DNA from: a virus
Lineage: Duplodnaviria > Heunggongvirae > Uroviricota > Caudoviricetes
Length of the DNA: 20,634 nt
IMG/VR virus record: IMGVR_UViG_2740892218_000001
Coordinates: 1-20,634 of that record
Reading direction: 5' to 3' (one strand)
Shown: piece after piece, positions 860 through 19,818 of the stretch
Position numbering within the stretch: the first letter of the stretch is position 1
How the letters are laid out: each line of letters starts with the position of its first letter
Position numbers and translations under genes: made by a program
The notes under the pieces: model-generated
The model's database searches: none
Seen by the model: the letters and a program-made list of their open reading frames with translations, nothing else
Told to the model about the DNA's origin: nothing

Positions 860-869
860 AGGTGGGTTT
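845..869 (-). terminator. Stem-loop (aaacccacc / tgaa / ggtgggttt) with a U6 run on the minus-strand transcript; candidate intrinsic terminator between the convergent mnt and YafO-like genes
   Basis: Perfect 9-bp inverted repeat at 848-856 / 861-869 with a 4-nt loop; on the minus strand it is followed by TTTTTT (845-850). The mnt stop codon sits in the loop. On the plus strand no U-run follows. Confidence 0.45.
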
Positions 870-1317
870 AGTCAAACATAGTGTTTCTAAAGTCTCTCGC
901 ATACCCTGCCAACACTCTCATTCTATTATGATTGTTAGCAGACATGTGAGCTACAGGATGAAAAAGAGCAATCAATGAATACCTGTTCTCATCAAAAAGA
1001 TTTTGTGCATAAACGAGAGCGGTATTGGAAGTTTTATGCCACTGCAACTTTTGCGGTGTGCTGATATCTGTGCCTTTTTTTATTGGCTCAAATTTATTTT
1101 CACCAATTGCTAAATGAAGGTGCATAAGGCCTGCATCTTCAATATCAGGAGGTCGATGATAAGAGGTGTCTCTGCCAAAATAGCTGGGCAACGTTCCCGT
1201 AGACTTGTAGATGATAAAATCATCTACAAGTGTTTGTTTTAAATCAGGAAACTCAACAAAAACCGGGGAGAAAAAATAGTCAAAACTATCCTGATTATAT
1301 TCCACGGTTACTTGCAT
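868..1317 (-). CDS. YafO-family toxin homolog (type II TA toxin family; ribosome-dependent mRNA interferase in E. coli YafO), 149 aa
   Basis: Translation carries the motifs DFIIYKSTGTLPSYFGRD, HLHLA, LVYAQNLFDE...LIALFHP...NNHNRMR, which align with E. coli YafO (DFISYKRDGVLPDIFGRD, HIHLA, LVYCQGAFDE...LIAILKP...DNNQMHK) as recalled from memory. GAGG RBS 5 nt upstream of ATG; AT-rich relative to the structural genes. Confidence 0.65.
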   Translation of the reverse strand: MQVTVEYNQDSFDYFFSPVFVEFPDLKQTLVDDFIIYKSTGTLPSYFGRDTSYHRPPDIEDAGLMHLHLAIGENKFEPIKKGTDISTPQKLQWHKTSNTALVYAQNLFDENRYSLIALFHPVAHMSANNHNRMRVLAGYARDFRNTMFD

Positions 1318-1325
1318 GTTTTACC

Positions 1326-1892
1326 TCAGTGGAAGTTACCAGAGTGAAACACACGAGTCCCGTGCTCAGCAAGCGCACGCAAACCAGCCATATCTACGGA
1401 ACTATCAAAAACAACCGGAACACATGAGCGTTGTTTAATAAGACTATTCAGGTTAGTTACGGCAGATCTAGCATCAGCAACAACGATATAGATATCTCTT
1501 GCGATCTCTTTAAAATCAGCAGAAGCTTCTTTGAATACCGATTTCATTGCCCCTTCAAGTCCTCTCAATTGATGCTCTATCAATCGAGATTTTTCTGGTT
1601 CAATGATAGACAACACATTGTCTACATTTTCATCGGTAGCGTTTGCAAGAACACGATAAGCATATTTCAGCATTCGAGACAATTCTTTAATCGAAGACAC
1701 CGCCTCATGAAGCTCATCATTGGTCCGTTCACTGCTGAGCGAGGATTGATGGTAAGCGTGCTGAACATTATCAGTGACAACCACCTCACAACTGAACGCA
1801 GAAGCTTGCTGTAATAGCAAACCTATTGCGACCCCAGCTTTGGCAGTGTTCAAGCTAAACATTTCATCAATCCCATTAGTCTCATTGCTCAT
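1326..1892 (-). CDS. Hypothetical 188-aa protein, upstream partner of the YafO-like toxin; no family recognised
   Basis: ATG at 1892 (MSNETNGIDEMF...) preceded by AAGGAGG with a 5-nt spacer; the track's TTG start at 1922 would include that RBS. Its TGA stop lies inside the RBS of the downstream toxin gene (8-nt gap), indicating translational coupling. Contains an R-x4-H motif (RALAEH) near the C-terminus. Confidence 0.6.
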   Translation of the reverse strand: MSNETNGIDEMFSLNTAKAGVAIGLLLQQASAFSCEVVVTDNVQHAYHQSSLSSERTNDELHEAVSSIKELSRMLKYAYRVLANATDENVDNVLSIIEPEKSRLIEHQLRGLEGAMKSVFKEASADFKEIARDIYIVVADARSAVTNLNSLIKQRSCVPVVFDSSVDMAGLRALAEHGTRVFHSGNFH

Positions 1893-1918
1893 ACAAACCT
1901 CCTTCTTATCGGAGATTA

Positions 1919-1959
1919 TCAATAGCTATGCATCTATTGAATACACGCTATGCTCAATA
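1919..1959. promoter_or_regulatory. Candidate operator: TCAATAG-N8-CTATTGA inverted repeat centred on ATGCAT, plus a third TCAATA half-site and a GCTATGC direct repeat
   Basis: Read directly: tcaatag (1919-1925) / ctattga (1934-1940), tcaata (1954-1959), gctatgc at 1925-1931 and 1947-1953; sits 27-67 bp upstream of the 188-aa gene start in the divergent intergenic region. Confidence 0.3.
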
Positions 1960-5782: not shown

Positions 5783-6475
5783 TTAAAACAACGAGCCAAG
5801 CAGACCAAGACCAGCACCGATACCAGCACCCCACGGAGTTGATAGCTCGAGAGCACTGGCTATGCCACCACCCAAAAGCGCACCGGATGCAGCACCACTA
5901 ACCCCCTGCTGCAATGCTGACGGTCGGTTGGCGTTTGCCGCAGCCAGCGCCGCGCTTTGCTGTGAAATCTGACTCATGTTGTTGGCATATGTTTGCCCGG
6001 CGTTTGCCTGCCCCTGAAGAGCGCCAAGACCGATATTTGCCAGGTTGTTGTAATTGTTCATTTGTCCAGATAGCCATTGCTGACCAAGCGTTGGTGCGAT
6101 TGTTGCTAACTGATTACTGGTTGCGGTGGAACCCAATCCACCTGTTGCTTCCGCTGCCGCCAGACTCTGATAGCGAGCCTGACCTGCAAGGTCTTTATAC
6201 TGCTGAGAGTTGTAATACTGGTTAAGCGCCTGACCTTGCCCTTCCAGAGACGATAAGTTCTCGAGGCTGCCGACATACTTATCAGCCAGAGGAGTAAACG
6301 GCTTCAGGTTGTTCATGATGGTGTTGAACTGCTGATTTTGCAGGTCTGCGGCATACTTCTGAGCTTCTGCGGCATACTTTGCGCTTTTATCAGAACTGCC
6401 ACCTTTCCCGCCTTTTTCAGGGCACCAAGGTTCCTCGCCGCGCAGTTTTCTGCCCAGCTTAAATGCATATAACAT
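5783..6475 (-). CDS. Ejection protein, P22 gp7-like, 230 aa
   Basis: Size and position match P22 gp7 (229 aa); Gly-rich hydrophobic C-terminal segment. Confidence 0.75.
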   Translation of the reverse strand: MLYAFKLGRKLRGEEPWCPEKGGKGGSSDKSAKYAAEAQKYAADLQNQQFNTIMNNLKPFTPLADKYVGSLENLSSLEGQGQALNQYYNSQQYKDLAGQARYQSLAAAEATGGLGSTATSNQLATIAPTLGQQWLSGQMNNYNNLANIGLGALQGQANAGQTYANNMSQISQQSAALAAANANRPSALQQGVSGAASGALLGGGIASALELSTPWGAGIGAGLGLLGSLF

Positions 6476-6477
6476 GG

Positions 6478-6933
6478 CTATCTCCCGTGATTCAGGAAGT
6501 CGATTAGTTCTTCGCGTGTGGCGCTGTAAAAAGTCACGTCATCCACGCCTTTAAAGTATTTCTTGATGGTTCCGACACGCTTAAGGCCAATCATTGCGCA
6601 GTAAATCTGCCCGTGGCGGAATTTGCGTGCGGCGAACGATGTGACGCACTGAACGGTGGTGTTAGTCAGAATGTATCGCCAGAACGCCAGCCCGATTTCC
6701 TTGCTGAAGCCACGAACCTCTGGCAGGTACATGGCGTGGCAATCGAATGTCAGCGGCTGAATCTCCTGATAGTAAACAATGCCGCCAAACTGACCGTACA
6801 CGTTAACCTCAAAGTAACGGCATTCAGGCTTGTAGTCGTATCCATCACCGTTGTTGCTTCCGGCGATAATGTCTGGGTGATTTCCCACGGCTTCTATCAG
6901 GTCGATGTTTCGCGTTGGTTTGAACTGAATCAT
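6478..6933 (-). CDS. P22 gp14-like protein, 151 aa
   Basis: Located between needle and gp7-like genes exactly as gene 14 in P22; start abuts the needle stop. Confidence 0.6.
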   Translation of the reverse strand: MIQFKPTRNIDLIEAVGNHPDIIAGSNNGDGYDYKPECRYFEVNVYGQFGGIVYYQEIQPLTFDCHAMYLPEVRGFSKEIGLAFWRYILTNTTVQCVTSFAARKFRHGQIYCAMIGLKRVGTIKKYFKGVDDVTFYSATREELIDFLNHGR

Positions 6934-7781
6934 TACTGCTCCGCGATTATCTTGATGGTTGTGGCAGTAAACGCCGCACCATTTGACTGGATGGTTAACG
7001 TACTGCCATTTGTGGCAAGAAAGCCGTCTTTATCCACGCTGAAAAACGTAGCTAACAGGATGTTATCGGTTGTTGTCGCCGCATTACGACTGCTGACCAA
7101 CGTGTCAGGAACAGAGCCGGAAAAGGTTAGCTGCATTGACCTGTTGGCGGTTCCGCTGGGCCACGTCCCGACGATCGACAGCTTGAAGAACAAGGTTTTG
7201 TTCTCGTTGAACACAACCATCTTGTTGTTAACGGTGTCGAAGAATGGTGCCAACGTGCCGGATGACGGCGTGAGCGTTTTCAGCAGGCTAACAAGGTTAG
7301 TAGGCGCTGTCGGGATGGTTACAGATACGCCAGAGTAAACAACCTCTGACTTCTTGCGAGTAGTGGCATACTCAAGAGCATCGATGCGCGTTTCATGGTC
7401 TGAAACCTGCGACTCCAGCGACTGAACTCTGGTATCAAGCGACGAAATATCGCTTTCATTCTGAGCTATTCGTGTTTCATGTTCCTGAAGAGTTGATTCT
7501 GCCTGGCTGATTCGCTCCTCATGATTAACAAGCGTTGCTTCCGCAGCAGAAATTCGCTGCTCATGGTCAGCGAGAATCACATCCTGCTCATCGTTCCTGA
7601 CTTGTGCGTCATAAGCGCCCTGTCCGGCCTCGTTGGCCTTGTTCGCCACGTTACCAACATCAGTGCCCTGCGCGATAACGTAAAGCAGATATGACTGCGA
7701 GAAGATATTGCGTGGAAGAACTGATGTGTCGAGCCGCGTAGCCTGGATGATTACCGGCACATTGAGATTCGAATCCGCCAT
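6933..7781 (-). CDS. Tail needle (gp26-like) with a C-terminal knob extension, 282 aa
   Basis: N-terminus [43 protein letters not shown]... matches the P22 gp26 N-terminus as recalled; central repeats ([36 protein letters not shown]) indicate a trimeric coiled coil; about 110 beta-rich C-terminal residues are absent from the 233-aa P22 needle and resemble the Sf6/HK620-type knob. Confidence 0.8.
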
Positions 7782-9199
7782 TACTCAATCCTTATCTGGC
7801 AGCCAGACAGAGTGACAGGTGACTTCGTGATAACGCGCAATTTGAAGCCAATGTTTTTCCTGATGCGCCCTACTTTCTTCCACAAAACGCGTTTGTCGTA
7901 AACGAACGGTTCATTCTGCTCAATCATCTGCTCACGACCGTAATTTATGCCGTCAGTGGTTGCAGAGAGAAAAAGGCGGTCAGCATACTGCGCAACGCCA
8001 GTGGATGATTCCACCTCCAGATCGAAGCATCTGGCGTTATCCGCTTTGAACAACGGAGTAAACAGCAGGTGTTCTTGCTGTAGCCCATACTGGCTGCTGA
8101 TATCGAACTGCAATTTCCCGGTAACCGATTCCAGCTTATCGCCGCACGTTATCTGATTGCCTTCGTAAATGAAGTCGATAGCGCGGTACACATCGTCATA
8201 CAGGCCTGTTTTCAACACACACCATTGCGGACCATTGGCGCTTGAAGATGCGTCGTACACGAGAACATGGCGCGGAAGGTGGATAATCAGCAACTCATGA
8301 GCATCAAATCTCAGCGATTCCATCACACCATCAGCCAGTTCATCAGCAGTGTAGGAGCGGAGGATTTTCTCAATGCTCGCGCTGGCGATTGGTGACACCT
8401 GACCGGAGCCGATGATATACACAGACGGCGCACCTGTTGCCGGATTGCTGATAAACGCATAGGAATCAGCAAACGGCGTTTTGCAGTAAGTTCCGGCAAT
8501 ACCTTTCTGCACCATCAGCGATGGCTGTGCGACATACAAAGCAGCACCAACGGTGGTTGCACCAGTCAGGGAAAAATACTCAATCGTCGATGAACCAAAA
8601 CAGACGATGAAGTCTCGCCATGTTCCGATGCCAATGATGCCGTCAGGCTGAGACTCGGCACGATATTGTGCGCTGTAACGGTCAGGATGCGATTCGTCTT
8701 CAAGGTCAGTGATGAACCATGAATCAGTGCCGTCTTTTGACCACGCATAACGCCCACGCAAGCGTGTAATGTCGCGAACTGAACCTAACTCATACTGAGT
8801 GAATCCACTGTCTGTAGGCCAGTTTGAGACGGTTTTAACCGTGCCATCATAACGATACTCTACCAGTTGACCATTAACACCTACAGCCTGAGATGTTCGA
8901 CCATGCGCCATTGATACGCGACCACTTCCGGCAACATCACCAACCTCGCTTTCGCCCTTATACAACTTGCCACCGCAAACGCGATAAACAGCATTCTGCG
9001 CCATGTTGTACTCGACACCGCGCGATACACCATTCACATCAGAACGTTTGGCAATGCCCGGGAATGAGCGAAGATATCCGCTGCTGTTGAGTATTTCTTT
9101 GGGTGTAGCCAGCATATTCACTGGCAGATAGTCGATATAGTCGGCGTTTCTAAAGTCTTTGCCGACACCTTTCATAAGCGGAAGTTGCTGAATCGGCAT
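7781..9199 (-). CDS. Tail hub protein, P22 gp10-like, 472 aa
   Basis: Same length as P22 gp10 (472 aa) and same position between gp4 and the needle. Confidence 0.8.
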
Positions 9200-9700
9200 T
9201 TATTCGCTCCCGTTATCGCAAGGTTCCTTCCGGTGGAAGTAATTCCAACCGTTCCACTTCGCCAACTGATTACCGCTACCAACAGGCATACGGTTTGGAT
9301 AACCGGACTTACATTTAGCAGCTTTTGCTCTGTCCATTGCAGACAGTTTGACGAGTCGCTCTTTCCCGTATCTGGCAGTGGTTATAAGTTTTGCAGACGC
9401 TTCCAGCGCATAATCTGGAGCAATGCGGCAGGCAAGGTTGAAAATGACGGCATTTATAGCGTTATTTGATAAGCCGTGCTCATCGCCCGGATCTGGAGCG
9501 ACATCTGCATCAGCAAAAATGTAGCCAACGTTGATCCCAGGTGACGCATCACCGCCAAGCCATTCAGCCATCATCATTTCAAGGTCGTTAACGCCGTCTT
9601 CCATAGACTGCGGTTCGACATCGGTTAACGTGGCATTTGATGCCACACCGAGCTTACGTAATGCCGCAAGAACTAAATCACCCTTCGTTGTCAGGTTCAT
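9200..9700 (-). CDS. Head-to-tail adaptor, P22 gp4-like, 166 aa
   Basis: Internal Met of ORF 9200..9775 gives [47 protein letters not shown]..., matching the P22 gp4 N-terminus and its 166-aa length as recalled; the track's longer N-terminal extension is rejected. Confidence 0.8.
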
Positions 9701-9914
9701 CTGCTGCCGCCTTAGGTTTTCGACCACGCTTTTTACGCTGTTTTTCTTCTGGCTCTGGCTCCGGCTCTGCAACATCCTTCAAAAGGTCATCAGGATGTGA
9801 AAACCAGCCAGCATCCAGATATTCCTGAAGCTCTTCGGCTTTCACGATTTCAAAGTCGTATCCAACGCCTTTCCATTTCTTCATGTCTCCATGACGAAAG
9901 ATCATGTGTGTCAT
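9678..9914 (-). CDS. Small hypothetical protein (78 aa) between coat and gp4, with a charged C-terminal tail containing KKRGRKPK
   Basis: ATG at 9914 preceded by GGAGA with a 6-nt spacer; overlaps the gp4 start by 23 nt; a small gene at this position is recalled in Sf6-type genomes. The ORF 9678..9962 start would overlap the coat stop. Confidence 0.4.
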
Positions 9915-9958
9915 GCTTGTCTCCAGATAAAAAAGGGAGCCGAAGCTCCCTCTGGTTA

Positions 9959-11254
9959 TCACGCAGTCTGGTTAGGCAGACCAACACCAATTGCCTCTGG
10001 TCGTACAGCACATGCTGAATACCACACAGCAATACGGCACTTACCAGACAGAGTGTTGATATCACCCTGCGTTGCGAAGATGCCGTTAACACCAATACCA
10101 GGAATGCTGAAGGAAGAAGTTTTCATGCCAGCAAACAGTTCATGGGTTACCGGAATCGGCTGAGACAGCAGGCGGATTGAGTCATCAGCCCAGAACACGT
10201 TAGCGGTGGTTGTTGCCACGTTCAGAACGTTTACCGGAGTGGTATCAGCAAGAGAGGTGTTTACGTTAGCGTAAGCCTTCTCTTCTTTTGTCAGTGACGC
10301 GTCATCCAGCGCAATCGGCTTCGGCGTGATTTCGATGTGAGTACTATCGATCACTCGGGTGATTGAGAAAGTCGCATCATCAGTCAGCACGTTCTTCGCC
10401 ATCTGAGATAGGAATTTCACACCAGTGAAGCTGATTTTGTCGCCGCGCTTAAATCCGGTGGTAGATGATACGGTCACCGTTGCAACACGGTTGTCGACGT
10501 TCTCTTTGTTACCATCGGTATCAAGGGTGTATGCCTGCGGCTTAAACTTCTGCGCACCAGAAACAGTTACACCAGTAGCGGTTGACTTGGTAACTGCCGG
10601 AAGTTTCGGTGAGCGAAGAATTTCATCAAAGCCAGCAATCTGACGCTGAATAGTACCGTTACGATACGCTTCTTCAGGAACGCGCCCAAAGATGTCACCA
10701 TCTACCAGGTTGCGGCCTGCTTTGCGGTAATCGTCAGGGTTCAGGAAGTAACTGATGCCCATATCGCGGTTTAGCTCACGGGAGAACATCAGGCGCTCTG
10801 CATCAGACACAAAATCCCAGCCAGACAGGCCAGTAGATGGACCAATTGCGCGGGTATCGTGAACAACAAGCGAGCCCATTTCAGTTGCCTGTTTGGCAAT
10901 TGCTGACTCAATGTTATTCGCCAGTTTTTTGGCGGATGCCTGGATGCGGCGACGGTAAGAACGCTCATCACGCAGGTCATCTGCACGAAGCTCGAAAAAA
11001 TCGTTATCCGGGTCGCCCATGTTGCATTTCACGGAGAGTTCCAGAATCCCGGTTGCGTTGCCAGTTAAATCCCAGCCAGTCTGGGTTGGCGCTTCCTGCT
11101 CAACAGGCATCCACACGGTGTTGCTTGAACGTTGCATGGATTCTGCCGGAGGGGTGTATTTTGTCACTTTGGACGCCATTGGCGTCAGGTTCTGGACGGT
11201 TTCGATGATTTCATCGATAGCGTAAGTAACTAACTGCCCTTCTTTGAGAGTCAT
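9959..11254 (-). CDS. Major capsid (coat) protein, P22 gp5-like, HK97 fold, 431 aa
   Basis: [54 protein letters not shown]... and ...[39 protein letters not shown]...[14 protein letters not shown] closely parallel P22 coat as recalled. Confidence 0.92.
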
Positions 11255-11321
11255 ATATTGAATACCTTACTTTCTTTATGTGCTATACTATTGTTATATC
11301 AACATATAGCGCATTAGGGTT

Positions 11322-11843
11322 ATGAGCATGGAACTGAATGAATACTTCGAATACCGCGATGGTTCTTTGGTTTGGAAAGCCAGAAGCTCTGAGTTTTTCA
11401 ACAACAAAAAGAATCGCAACTATCACAACGTTTGGAATGCAAAACACGCTGGGAAAGTTGCTGGTCTTTTAGAAAGCAATGGATATATCCGCATAAGAAT
11501 TAACGGCATTAAGTGGCTAGCACACCGCATCGTATGGGTAATGTTTAACGGAGATATTCCAGAAGGCATGGAAATTGACCATATAAATGGGATTCGCCAC
11601 GACAACAGAATTGAAAATCTTCGTCTTGTGAAAAAATCAGCAAACCAAAGGAATAGAATCAAACTATCTAAAAATAACTCCAGCGGAATATCTGGAGTTT
11701 ACTTTTGCAACACGCGGAAAAGATGGATCGCTCATAAGCGACTGCTTAATGCAAGAGTGCAAAAAGTATGTTCTTCATTCGAAGAGGCGAAAGAAGTAAT
11801 CAGAAAGTTTGACGAGGAAAACAACATCACGATATCGAAATAA
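11322..11843 (+). CDS. HNH homing endonuclease with C-terminal AP2-type DNA-binding domain (free-standing HEG), 173 aa
   Basis: HNH motif region EIDHINGIRHDNRIENLRLVKKSANQRN and AP2-like segment SGISGVYFCNTRKRWIAHKRL; AT-rich; opposite strand to the whole structural operon; stop codon abuts the scaffold stop. Alternative start ATG at 11328 has better spacing to AGGG. Confidence 0.75.
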   Translation: MSMELNEYFEYRDGSLVWKARSSEFFNNKKNRNYHNVWNAKHAGKVAGLLESNGYIRIRINGIKWLAHRIVWVMFNGDIPEGMEIDHINGIRHDNRIENLRLVKKSANQRNRIKLSKNNSSGISGVYFCNTRKRWIAHKRLLNARVQKVCSSFEEAKEVIRKFDEENNITISK

Positions 11844-12755
11844 TTATCGAATTCCTTTATTCAGTTGTGCCTTAAGCTTGCGGTACGTCTCTACATCCCC
11901 TTTGTTTGCTGCCGCCTCCATCTGCTTTTCAATCGCAGAGATATTTGCAGCAACAGCATGTCCCTGAATGGGCTCATCAGGTAACGGGGCTTCTGAAACA
12001 GGCTTGGCTCGAGGCTTGAGAGTTAAACGTTCTGACAGTCGAGTGAGTTCAATCAGCGCTGATTGCCCGTCCATCGCCAGCAACTGGCGTGTTTTCTCAG
12101 GATTAGCACCAAGGTGATACATGAGAGCAGCGGATTTCTCCGGGAAGAGGCGCATGATGTCGGCACCGACTGCTGGCGGCACCAGTTGCATGAATGCATC
12201 CTCTTTCTCCTGATAGTCAGGGATATTGAGCTTTTCCGCTGCGTCGTAGTGCTTACGGGCTGCCTCGACGTATTGCGCTGATTGCTGGGTGAACTCCTGA
12301 GTTTTGCGACCCTGCTCGGCGACAGCCTGGCTTCGTGCGTCCATAGCCTTGATCTGCCATTCACTGTTTGCCTGCTGGAAGGCAGCCAGTGCGCGGCTCT
12401 GGTCATAGTCGTACTTAGCCAGTGCATCTTCGGAAAGATAATCGTTAGGGTCTGGTTGTTTTGGTAACTCAGGGTTCACCCGCAGGTGCTCCGGCAACTC
12501 TCCACGCTTAACCGCTTCCATCTGTTGCTCAAGCTCACGCTGGCGTTTGCGTTCGATGCGGCGACGGGCAAATTCAGCATTAGTTGCCGGGTCTTGTTTT
12601 GGTTTCTCATCGTCTTTCAGGACAATCTCGAAGCCTTCTTCCTGACCTGCGTTGTCGTTGGCATTATCGACAACTAAGCCATCAGCAGATGCCGCTGCAT
12701 GATTGCCGGGCAGGGTTAATTCTTCAGAAGCCTGAATGTCGGTGGTTTTGTCCAT
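11844..12755 (-). CDS. Scaffolding protein, P22 gp8-like, 303 aa
   Basis: Same length as P22 gp8 (303 aa) and long near-identical stretches as recalled ([115 protein letters not shown]). Confidence 0.9.
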
Positions 12756-12768
12756 GATTAACTCTCTC

Positions 12769-14937
12769 TTATTGAGGTGTCTCGGCTACTCCGCCGGAGG
12801 GGATTTGAACTTGACGCATAAGATTCGCGAAATCCATGCGTTGTGAATGAGTCTGGTCTGCATCTTTAAGAAGCAGCTCAGCGTTAGCACGAGCATCTTT
12901 GCTGCGCTGTTGCTGGAATTGACCTACGAGCTTGAGGTACTCACGCAGTTCTGCCTGCTTATCAAGGTCCATATTGTTGAAGATTTCTGCAATCTTCGCG
13001 GCGTTGAGTTGGTTTTGGGCTTCAACCTTGGCGGCTTCAACCTGAATCTGCGCCTGTTGGTTCTCTGCCTTGAGCAATTCAGCCTGACCTTGCAGAAGGA
13101 TGCCCTGCGCCTGAATTTGCTCTGCTGATGGCTGCTGCGGCTGCTGTTGAGCCTGCTGTACCATCTCCATCTCTTCAGGTGTTTCTGGTTTCTTCAGCCC
13201 CATCATCACCAGTTGCTTGTTCGCGTACTCTCGCATCATCTCGACGCCTTTACCGTCAAGCAGCGTGAAGTATTGCAGCATCAGCATCTGGAACTCTGGA
13301 GTACCTTGCGGAACCTTGGTTAGCAACTCCTGAATCTCTGCGCGATTCTGTTCCTTCATGCTCTGGAAGGATGGTCCGACGTCTGTATAGCACTCATAGC
13401 GACCGCGAATATCGTTGAGTGTGACCACATTGCCAGACTGGTAATCTACAACTTGCGCATAGAGTTGAACGTCTTTCTCGCTTCCATCTTCAAGTGTCAG
13501 CGTTACATGACGAGGAACGTCATAAATATCGTTGACCATTGAGGCATAAATCTCGCCATCACGTCGCATTGCGGTAGCCAGGTTATCCTGAAACACGTAT
13601 GTCTCAAGGTCTGCCCGCATGTTCAGTTGATTGACGGTATCGAAAGCGACCTGAGAGTTTGCTGCCTGCGCATCCACACCAAGACTAGCCACCTCTTTCA
13701 CTGCGTTGGTGGCAGCCTCAAGCATGTAAGCGTTGGCTTGCGGCACTTCAGGGTTTTCCATGTAGGAGATTGGACCAATCGGCAGGTCGTTGCCGTTTTC
13801 ATCGGTCCTGTTCTGCAGATAGTACGGATAGTCATCATTTCCACCGTACATGTATTCGTAGCCTTCGATTTGCTCAGGGAAGAAGGTCGGTTTCTTCTTC
13901 GGTGAACGAGCAACAATATCGGCGTTGAATGACATGATCATGTTACGAAGGCGTTGACCGTCTTTCGTCAGCCTTACCACTCCTTCGTAGCACTCCTTGT
14001 CACCAGCGAATGACCATTCGCCATACACTGGAACGATTGGAATATGCTCTCCGGCTATCTTCTCGCGGTCTTTCAGTATCTGCGTGCAGGTGATGATCGA
14101 CTTATACACACGCCGACGCTTCACCTTGCGCTCTGCTACCTTAATGAATCCACGATTAGCCAGGTCGTCGATGACGTCTTTGATATCCTGCTGGTAATAG
14201 CTGACCGGCTCACCTGTCAGCGGGTCGCGGTAGATGAAGACTTTCTCCTTCTTCTCTTCTACCTCGTAATACTCAGCGACGTAGACGACATCATTCGATA
14301 CCCACGGAAACAGCCATGTGTCGTTCGGATTCTGGAAAGATGGCAGGGTGTCAGGATCAATACCGTAATCCTCTGCGAACTCTTTCCAGCCATTGCGCGA
14401 CAAGGCGTTAATCACCGTGCAATGCTTAGCGTCGCTCTTATCCATCTGCTTGCTGTTTGCGTCCCATATGACGTGTGAGCAGGCTTCATGGATTGGCAGG
14501 CGTCGGATTACCTGATTGTTGCTTGTTGGATCGTTGTCTTCGTACTGCGTGACCAGACGCCATGCACCAACGCCAGACTCTATCTGCTCACGAACGCCAA
14601 CGTTAACAGCAATCTTTGCCGTGTTATGGCGCATATCAGTACGATACATTCCCATCAACACATCGGCAGCATCAGGATTAGCGCCGTCTTTTGGTCTGAA
14701 TAGAACGTCGATAGGGTTCCGGCGCATCTCTGCGACCAGTTTCCTGACCACCGGGCGAACAACATCGAATTGTCCGCGATATTGCAGGGTGGTGTAGTTT
14801 GATAGCCAGTCATCCCATTGCGACACTCGGCTAAAATACAGGTCATTTGTCGCCTCGGTTCTGGCCTCATCGCTTGCTGCCCAATCCCTGTCAAACCGAA
14901 GGAGAATGGTTCGCAATTTGTCGTCTTGGTCGGCCAT
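12769..14937 (-). CDS. Portal protein, P22 gp1-like, 722 aa
   Basis: N-terminus [67 protein letters not shown]... closely parallels P22 portal as recalled; size (P22 725 aa) and Gln-rich C-terminal helix region fit. Confidence 0.92.
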
Positions 14938-16397
14938 TATCTACCTCTGGAAATTGGACGAATTGGAGCCGGTAATGGCTTAGTTGGTTTGTTTTTGACT
15001 ACCGGGAATGCAAACGTCAGGGCTAACGCATCAGCGCGGTTTGGTGAAGGAACCCCACGGCGCTTCATGTCATCTTTGGCCTCAAGGACGATGCGCCCAT
15101 CGAGCTTAACCCTGTACTCAGGAGCAACGATTTCGTCAGCTGTTTGCTGATCATCGATACTTCCCCCTTCTTTGAGCCATGACTTCATTGAGTTCCACAT
15201 CTCACCGCGCTTGTTCAGCATGCCGGGGTCTTTGGATTCACCCCCAAAGTTAACCAGCTGCCACTTCCTTCCCCACGACCTACCTATTGAGTGAATTCCG
15301 GTGCCATACCCGAAGTCTATGAACACTGCATCTGCCTTATGCTCATCCTCAAATCCTGCGACGATTTGCGCGAACTTAACGTCGTCATCTGTTTTCGGGT
15401 AGGTGCCAAGCAGGCGCGCATGAAGACCCTGGCGAAGGTAAATTGATGCCTCATCACTACCTGTGTAAGCAGGGTCAACGCCGATTATTTTGGATGCGAA
15501 TGTGTAAGAGCCGGGCTCAAGCGTGCGAGACATGGCCTCATCCACATATGCCTGAGGTATGAACTGGACTTCTGATGTCGATGGGAATAGACCGCGAACA
15601 CGTACTTTAAAGAAGTCGCTGTCTTCACCGTAATCCTTGCGCCACTCTTCGATGAGCTCTTTGTTGGTCATCTTTGCCAGGCGGCTATCAATTTGACGTC
15701 GACGCCATCGGTGTTTGAACTTGCGGAAGCACTCTCGGAATCGACCGGTGTTACGCGTCGGGTTCCCAAATGCAAACCAGAAAGGCTCGCCGTCAGTAAG
15801 GCCGCCCTCTGCTACTTCCCAAATTTTGTCAGGAACCGCTGAGGCTTCATCGAAGATGTAGAACGGGCTTGAGTTAGCTGCATGCAGGCCAGCAAATGAC
15901 TCGCTGTTCTCTTCCCGACACGTCTGGCCGTCACAGCGCCATGATTCCATGTGATCCACATGGTAGATGTTCATGTTGCCTTTGCCGTTGTTGTACTCAA
16001 ACCAGTGACCGGTGATGCACCGCTTCTTCCACTTGCCCAGCTCGCCCCATGTTTTGGTGCGAAGCTGTTCAGAGGTATTAGCTGTCACGACGCCCTTGCA
16101 GAAAGGACGAGTGCTGAGGATGTACAGAATGACCCAGGCAGTTAGAGCACTTTTACCGATACCGTGACCAGAGCTGGTAGCGCAACGATAGGCTTCAACA
16201 GGTTTAACACCGTCGAAGTTATTAGTCCTGATTGCGTCTCCCCAATCTGTCAGAAACTCTTTCTGCCATTCATCGGGGCCGTCAAAGCCATCAAGCTCAC
16301 CAGTTCCCCAATCAAACGCATACATAACGAAGCCAAGCGGATCGTAAAAGAATCGACCCATATCATCGGCAAGCATTGCCTCGAATTCTGACGACAT
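14937..16397 (-). CDS. Terminase large subunit, 486 aa
   Basis: Position upstream of portal with TAATG overlap; Walker A-like GHGIGKS segment; size typical of P22/Sf6-type TerL. Confidence 0.88.
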
Positions 16398-16834
16398 TAC
16401 TCACCTCTCGCGCGTTTTCTGGCCTCCTGAATGCGCTGAATCAGGTTAACCTCTCCGGTGTGTTCAACTTCTTGCTTATCGCGCCATTTATCCTTCTGTC
16501 GGTTCTTAAGCCAGAAAATGGCAGCGGTTGTATCAGGCGGGTAATACTTCTCAAGCGGAGTTTCGACAATTCTGTTTTCAATAACACGAATATCGATGTC
16601 TGGAGCCACGAAGCCCATAGCGCGTTGATAAAGACGATCACTAACTTCTGCATCAGCGACGGCCTTACCCTTTTTTATGGACTCCGAAAACTTAGGATAA
16701 TCAAGCTTCCACTTGTTAATAGTTGACTCACTGACTTCGAAGAAATCAGCAAGCTCTGCGTCTGTATAGCCCAGCAAGCACAGTTTGCGTGCCTGTTCGG
16801 CGTACGCCTCTTGATACTTTGTTGGGCGCGCCAT
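16397..16834 (-). CDS. Terminase small subunit (HTH-type, Sf6 gp1-like), 145 aa
   Basis: Immediately upstream of TerL with TAATG overlap; N-terminal HTH-like region (LGYTDAELADFFEVSESTINKWK) resembles Sf6-type small terminases as recalled; not P22 gp3-like. Confidence 0.7.
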   Translation of the reverse strand: MARPTKYQEAYAEQARKLCLLGYTDAELADFFEVSESTINKWKLDYPKFSESIKKGKAVADAEVSDRLYQRAMGFVAPDIDIRVIENRIVETPLEKYYPPDTTAAIFWLKNRQKDKWRDKQEVEHTGEVNLIQRIQEARKRARGE

Positions 16835-19662: not shown

Positions 19663-19738
19663 TGGTGCTGGTTAACGGACTTGAACCGCTACCCATTCGC
19701 TTACAAGGCGACTGCTCTACCATTGGAGCTAAACCAGC
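19663..19738 (-). tRNA. tRNA-Thr (anticodon UGU), 76 nt with encoded CCA
   Basis: Folded by hand from the minus strand: perfect 7-bp acceptor stem (GCTGGTT/AACCAGC), U8, 4-bp D stem (GCTC/GAGC) with a GG-containing loop, anticodon loop CTTGTAA, T-arm AGCGG-TTCAAGT-CCGTT, discriminator A, CCA. Confidence 0.75.
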
Positions 19739-19743
19739 ATGTT

Positions 19744-19818
19744 TGGCGGGGCAGCGTGGACTCGAACCACGATAAGAAGGTTAACAGCCTTCCGTAATGA
19801 CCTTTATACGACTGACCC
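19744..19818 (-). tRNA. tRNA-Asn-like (anticodon GUU), atypical and possibly a pseudo-tRNA, 75 nt
   Basis: Perfect anticodon stem (GAAGG/CCTTC) with loop CTGTTAA and perfect T-arm (CGTGG-TTCGAGT-CCACG); anticodon and T loops match E. coli tRNA-Asn as recalled; but one U-C mismatch in the acceptor stem and only a 3-bp D stem. Confidence 0.5.

Follow-up and report, generated by a model that had tools for sequence, protein, structure and literature searches.

An Sf6-type tail needle, with a known knob domain, in a mosaic P22-like late region

The window analysed here, a stretch of 20,634 nucleotides that makes up a Caudoviricetes virus record, is a minus-strand late region of P22-like type with the order Q, tRNA-Asn, tRNA-Thr, holin, endolysin, Rz, TerS, TerL, portal, scaffold, coat, gp4, gp10, needle, gp14, gp7, gp20 and gp16. 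Its late-operon open reading frames (ORFs) are all full-length and uninterrupted, with strong family matches. The tail needle gene, homologous to gene 9 of Sf6 and gene 26 of P22, occupies positions 6933..7781 as an ATG-to-TAA ORF of 282 codons plus TAA in the ORF listing. A first-pass annotation had placed a needle of 282 aa, compared with 233 aa for P22 gp26, at this location, and the ORF lies exactly there; its orientation is corrected here to the minus strand, the plus-strand reading of the same interval having stops throughout. The gene sits in the late operon between a gp10-like tail hub gene (7781..9199, minus strand, 472 aa; PF11134 Phage_stabilise, E~1e-299) and a gp14-like gene (DUF2824; 6478..6933, minus strand, 151 aa; PF11039, E=2e-52), and both junctions read TAATG, with the gp10-like TAA stop overlapping the needle ATG upstream and the needle TAA stop overlapping the ATG of the gp14-like gene downstream. 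Tandem Repeats Finder detected no DNA-level tandem repeat in the needle gene, so the heptad periodicity of its product exists only at the protein level.

The sole Pfam match of the needle above the curated cutoff is PF16532 (Phage_tail_NK, 'Sf6-type phage tail needle knob'), which covers residues 108-282 with E=1.2e-117 and 390 bits against a cutoff of 27. The remaining Pfam matches are sub-threshold coiled-coil noise at residues about 50-150, and an NCBIfam scan gave no dedicated HMM match, returning sub-threshold coiled-coil noise only (SMC, RNase Y). In PHROGs, phrog_1030 'tail needle knob' extends across the full length of the protein (E=1e-135), and residues 1-146 also match phrog_1219 'tail needle protein'. 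Among solved structures, residues 130-282 are identical to chain A of the Sf6 knob (PDB 3RWN) at 151 of 153 positions (E=3e-90), and chain A of the HS1 knob (PDB 4K6B) matches equally strongly (E=9e-90), which bears out the earlier proposal of a C-terminal knob absent from P22 gp26. The proposal of a gp26-like N-terminus of ~140 residues with a coiled coil also held: P22 gp26 chains 2POH and 3C9I match residues 1-144 (E~2e-43) in the same heptad register, and the P22 needle N-terminus (PDB 8EAP chain B) matches residues 3-64 (E=2e-27). Chance is far from accounting for scores of this size. Compared with Sf6 gp9 (AAQ12199, also 282 aa, the source of knob structure 3RWN), the whole needle is identical at 278 of 282 residues (98.6%; about 96% at the nucleotide level), the four substitutions being R92S, D100E, S234A and S270A. 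NCBI already lists the identical 282-aa sequence under the name 'MULTISPECIES: tail needle knob protein [Escherichia]'. The gene almost certainly encodes a tail needle of Sf6 type, probably trimeric, that belongs to a P22-like (Lederbergvirus-type) phage or prophage of E. coli/Shigella; nothing was found against this identification.

Global alignments were used to measure identity separately over three modules, namely a plug (residues 1-73; 7563..7781), a shaft (residues 74-139; 7365..7562) and the Sf6-type knob (residues 140-282; 6936..7364), all on the minus strand. The knob boundary follows Leavitt et al. 2013, who defined it as Sf6 residues 140-282 (PMC3741392), and the resulting 143 aa replace the ~110 residues first estimated. 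The N-terminal virion-binding plug, which is conserved across P22-like needles, is identical to that of Sf6 at 73/73 positions, phage Louie at 72/73, the E. coli strain 165 prophage (which has an HS1-like needle of 317 aa) and HK620 at 69/73 each, and P22 at 60/73. Over the shaft, a predicted trimeric coiled coil of heptad repeats with recurring 'HExRI' motifs, identity is 65/66 to Louie, 64/66 to Sf6 and 45/66 to the strain 165 prophage, and just 15-20/66 to HK620, IME10 and P22 (15/66 for HK620 and 20/66 for P22). The knob is identical to that of the strain 165 prophage (143/143) and nearly so to those of Louie (142/143) and Sf6 (141/143); forcing HK620 and P22 into a global alignment yields 27/143 and 26/143, which is no more than noise. 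Without gaps, residues 1-60 are 82% identical to P22 gp26 and residues 61-140 are 39% identical, with the heptad layout of residues 61-139 remaining in register; about 11 heptads have been described for the Sf6 shaft. Since the module identities differ among Sf6, Louie, the strain 165 prophage, HK620 and P22, the plug/shaft and shaft/knob junctions have both served as exchange points.

A TNF-like jellyroll has been described for the knob of this family (PMC3741392), and near-identity to the two crystal structures 3RWN and 4K6B indicates that the knob of the window needle probably forms the same jellyroll trimer. This assignment relies on the crystal structures because our own model was of low confidence in the knob. 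Single-sequence AlphaFold2 prediction of the full needle gave a mean pLDDT of 59, with one helix at residues 42-141 (pLDDT 80-94 over residues 61-130); at low confidence (knob pLDDT about 40-65), the shaft helix stops at residue 141 and beta-strands run from 146 to 281. The knob is rich in T, S, V, L and F and has few charged residues, a composition consistent with a beta-rich domain. Published ligand contacts comprise E146, K200, S248, D250, L255 and K277 for L-glutamate, and a distal phosphate triad S231-R232-N233 (PMC3741392). All nine residues are present in the window needle at the same positions.

The needles of P22 (gp26; 2POH, 3C9I) and HK620 (gp26; 5BU5) share with the window needle a homologous plug, the shaft heptad register, the genomic position and the plug function, but they are 233 aa long and end in a tip unrelated in sequence to the knob. 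P22 gp26 has no knob domain, and its chains 2POH, 3C9I, 4ZKP and 4LIN, like the 233-aa chain 5BU5, align with the window needle only from residue 1 to 137-149, no gp26 or HK620 chain in the PDB aligning past residue 149. The P22-type tip, that is, a homologue of the ~90 C-terminal residues of P22 gp26 (residues 141-233), is not present in the window needle. The knob had initially been described as 'Sf6/HK620-type', and only the Sf6 half of that label survives. The HK620 gene 26 product aligns with the window needle to about residue 148 only, whereas it aligns with P22 gp26 from end to end, tip included, at 61% identity, and HK620 is the type of subtype A of the P22-type tips (B, epsilon34; C, P22) in Leavitt et al. 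2013 (PMC3741392). Grouping HK620 with Sf6 as a knobbed phage was rejected on the basis of this 233-aa needle with its P22-type tip. A reading of the C-terminus as an elongated or diverged form of the folded-back helical and beta tip of gp26, without a distinct knob, has next to no probability. The N-terminal 140 residues are indeed common to the window needle and gp26, and the two tips can be aligned at a short 'TGTAN...LTF' motif, but this reading is refuted by the matches of the knob to PF16532 and 3RWN at E<1e-89 and by a single pairwise BLASTP comparison of residues 140-282 with the last 103 residues of P22 gp26, which yielded 12/30 identities at E=0.15. P22, HK620 and IME10 also have no nucleotide match across 7000-7600 of the window. 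The alignments to P22 gp26 and Sf6 that had been suggested as a check therefore gave no significant similarity to the P22 tip, and the C-terminus does not align to that of gp26.

The first-pass annotation further took the knob to mark the phage as mosaic within the P22-like group. The mosaicism was confirmed by gene-by-gene and 200-bp identity maps, and it is the comparison of neighbouring genes that reveals it; the knob alone is a weak marker, because Sf6-type knobs were present in 69 of 164 P22-like genomes by 2013 (PMC3741392). The needle is flanked by gp10-like and gp14-like genes in Sf6 as in the window, and Sf6 shares its three modules and ligand-contact residues, but the surrounding head genes of Sf6 are wholly unlike those of the window. 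At the amino acid level, identity to Sf6 and P22, respectively, is 99% (gp8) and 93% (gp10) for gp10, 98.6% and 58% (residues 1-137 only) for the needle, 97% (gp10) and 90% (gp14) for gp14, 27% and 85% for the scaffold, and 33% and 77% for the portal, while the coat has no match in Sf6 and is 72% identical in P22. A nucleotide identity map was built in 200-bp bins from a single record for each locus. In it, IME10, HZ41 and the E. coli strain 165 prophage match the head genes (9200-14900) at 95-99% identity, except for an unmatched HNH insert at ~11200-11800 and the last bin, at the portal/terminase junction, which is ~84% identical. At 7000-7600, corresponding to shaft and knob, IME10, HZ41 and P22 have no nucleotide match and Sf6 is 94-98% identical. 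These nucleotide comparisons support a mosaic in which the head genes are of IME10/HZ41 type (P22 lineage), whereas for the shaft and knob of the needle Sf6 is the only match. The window is a textbook case of module exchange in P22-like phages, in which plug, shaft and tip of one gene have separate histories.

The portal/terminase boundary is another sharp mosaic junction. The TerS and TerL genes (14937..16834, minus strand) are unrelated in nucleotide sequence to those of the five genomes compared (P22, Sf6, IME10, HZ41 and the strain 165 prophage), though IME10, HZ41 and strain 165 match the adjoining portal gene at 95-99% identity. The terminase large subunit has no Pfam match and is recognised only by PHROG 5902 and PHROG 2.

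Close relatives of the needle are common. The exact protein is found on 35 contigs in NCBI, up to a 4.9-Mb chromosome, its 90% cluster has 3620 members, and the 432 bp coding for the knob occur at ≥90% identity in 821 of 5426 complete E. coli genomes, annotated as 'tail needle knob protein'. The best overall prophage match to the window is that of E. coli strain 165. Its knob is identical, but its needle (locus L004, 10215-11168) has a shaft that is 35 residues longer and diverged over the shared part, so that in prophages that are otherwise near-identical the length of the shaft changes independently of the knob. Nucleotide matches to the needle gene were found in 14 phage records, among them Sf6, Kapi1, N7, Louie and phiKp_30. 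Louie (PQ850616) shares the needle (279/282), the head genes and an HNH insert between scaffold and coat, but differs in its terminase and ejection-protein genes, and its megablast match spans only 5910-14877 of the window. The needle gene of phiKp_30 (LC768498.2, 33.7 kb) is 96.3% identical at the nucleotide level, and the recorded host is Klebsiella pneumoniae; this record represents either an extension of the Sf6-type needle to another host genus or a mislabelled or contaminating E. coli prophage.

Plug and knob differ in how widely they occur. A tblastn search of the phage collection with the plug domain matched 147 phage records, and among the matches listed all are P22-like/Lederbergvirus or APSE/Sodalis-type relatives. 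The same type of search with knob residues 137-282 matched 292 records, which include Ackermannviridae, T4-like, T7-like and siphophages of Salmonella, Klebsiella, Dickeya, Aeromonas, Edwardsiella and Vibrio; in 2013, only 21 matches outside the P22-like group were reported (PMC3741392). The knob-only homologues (CBA120 and PhiSH19 of the Ackermannviridae, T4-like RB43 and 44RR2.8t, and some T7-like phages and siphophages) are 30-57% identical over ~88-99% of the knob but do not have the gp26-type N-terminal plug, and the glutamate-contact residues have been reported as conserved in such non-P22-like homologues (PMC3741392). Salmonella phage vB_SalP_ABTNLsp11242 (MW790496, a Lederbergvirus) encodes a 288-aa knobbed needle (locus L010, 3575-4441) whose identity to the window needle is 62% overall, ~78% across the knob and ~60% across the plug. 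It does not fit two statements made in 2013, namely that Sf6-type knobs are absent from the P22-like phages of Salmonella and that P22-like knobs diverge by <5% (PMC3741392).

By analogy with characterised phages, the near-identical window needle would behave like those of Sf6, HS1 and P22 with respect to plugging, trimerisation, fold, glutamate binding, loss of the needle during infection and effect on kinetics. Residues 1-73 would insert into the channel of the gp10 tail hub as a plug, so that the packaged DNA stays inside, and residues 74-139 would form a three-stranded coiled coil of about 11 heptads reaching past the tailspikes. Distally, the knob (residues 140-282) would be a TNF-like jellyroll trimer with three L-glutamates at the subunit interfaces and one phosphate at the tip. 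In studied members of the group, the N-terminal part of the needle closes the tail-hub channel and so keeps the DNA in; the needle extends past the tailspikes and is missing from particles that have released their DNA (PMC3741392; PMC9728967, Li et al. 2022). During infection, the tailspikes would digest the O-antigen until the needle tip meets the outer-membrane surface and the needle is released, after which the ejection proteins gp7, gp20 and gp16, whose genes lie immediately downstream in the window, would exit the virion to build a trans-envelope conduit for the DNA. In cryo-ET of P22, as recounted by Subramanian et al. 2022 (PMC9400499), contact between needle and cell surface is followed by a reorientation of the particle, loss of the needle and assembly of a tube from the ejection proteins.

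Within such a pathway, the tip domain probably tunes the kinetics of DNA delivery and would not determine host specificity. Modulation of ejection kinetics is the best-supported role for the knob by analogy with published experiments, in which P22 chimeras with an Sf6 or HS1 knob infected Salmonella normally, point mutants in the glutamate contacts had no phenotype and several tip changes slowed K+ release (PMC3741392), and in which host-range and OmpC-related mutations of Sf6 mapped to the tailspike, not the needle (PMC9400499). The same chimeras uphold the initial view of the knob as a swappable module. Alternatively, the knob could, like those of adenovirus and PRD1, be a host-specific domain that binds a secondary receptor such as OmpA or OmpC and sets the host range. 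All knobbed P22-like phages known in 2013 infected Escherichia or Shigella (PMC3741392), and Sf6 requires OmpA or OmpC as secondary receptors (PMC9728967), but we consider this role unlikely given the tailspike location of the Sf6 mutations and the normal infection of Salmonella by the chimeras, which indicates that the knob gives no species specificity in the laboratory. The knobbed needle of a Salmonella Lederbergvirus also argues against it. There is a slim chance that the knob, in its natural E. coli host, serves as a needle-release trigger that depends on a ligand (L-glutamate or phosphate) or on an outer-membrane protein, a role that P22/Salmonella chimeras would miss. If so, S234A, which lies beside the S231-R232-N233 triad and recurs in the knobs of many E. 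coli prophages, could denote a functional variant of the tip, and the trigger would concern the whole described knob family rather than the window in particular.

It is very improbable that the gene belongs to a decayed prophage remnant and is functional no more. More than 100 E. coli genomes hold a small P22-like remnant with an Sf6-type needle gene (Leavitt 2013, PMC3741392), and the exact protein occurs on bacterial chromosomes, but the late operon of the window is intact from Q to gp16, with full-length ORFs, and the needle ORF, itself unbroken, shares 98.6% identity with its counterpart in a viable phage. We rejected the remnant on account of the intact operon. As for its significance, the Sf6-type knobbed needle is already known, structurally solved and routinely annotated, and there is nothing new in the needle of the window, for which 'tail needle protein, Sf6-type knob' would be a fitting annotation with little significance beyond that. 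The role of the knob and its bound glutamate is a question for the family that the window sequence does not advance.

Three further features of the window lie outside the needle locus. Scaffold and coat genes abut directly in P22, and in the window they are separated by an insert of ~590 bp (11255-11843) that contains, opposite to the operon strand, an ORF for a 173-aa HNH endonuclease (11322..11843, plus strand; PF13392 HNH_3, E=4e-22). The insert is missing from P22, Sf6, IME10, HZ41 and the strain 165 prophage and is 99.6% identical in phages Louie and Dewey; the ORF looks like a free-standing homing endonuclease. An accessory region, bounded by the gene-16 homologue on one side and a P22 mnt-like segment on the other, contains a gene for a YafO-type toxin domain protein (868..1317, minus strand; PF13957, E=3e-22) and, upstream of it, an ORF of 198 aa (1326..1922, minus strand; phrog_8416). 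Neither gene has a match in P22, Sf6, IME10 or HZ41, and together they could be a toxin-antitoxin moron. Genes for tRNA-Thr (TGT) and tRNA-Asn (GTT) lie at 19663..19818 (minus strand) between the Q antiterminator and holin genes, a placement also seen in Sf6 and phage 21, and this region is 98-100% identical to Sf6.
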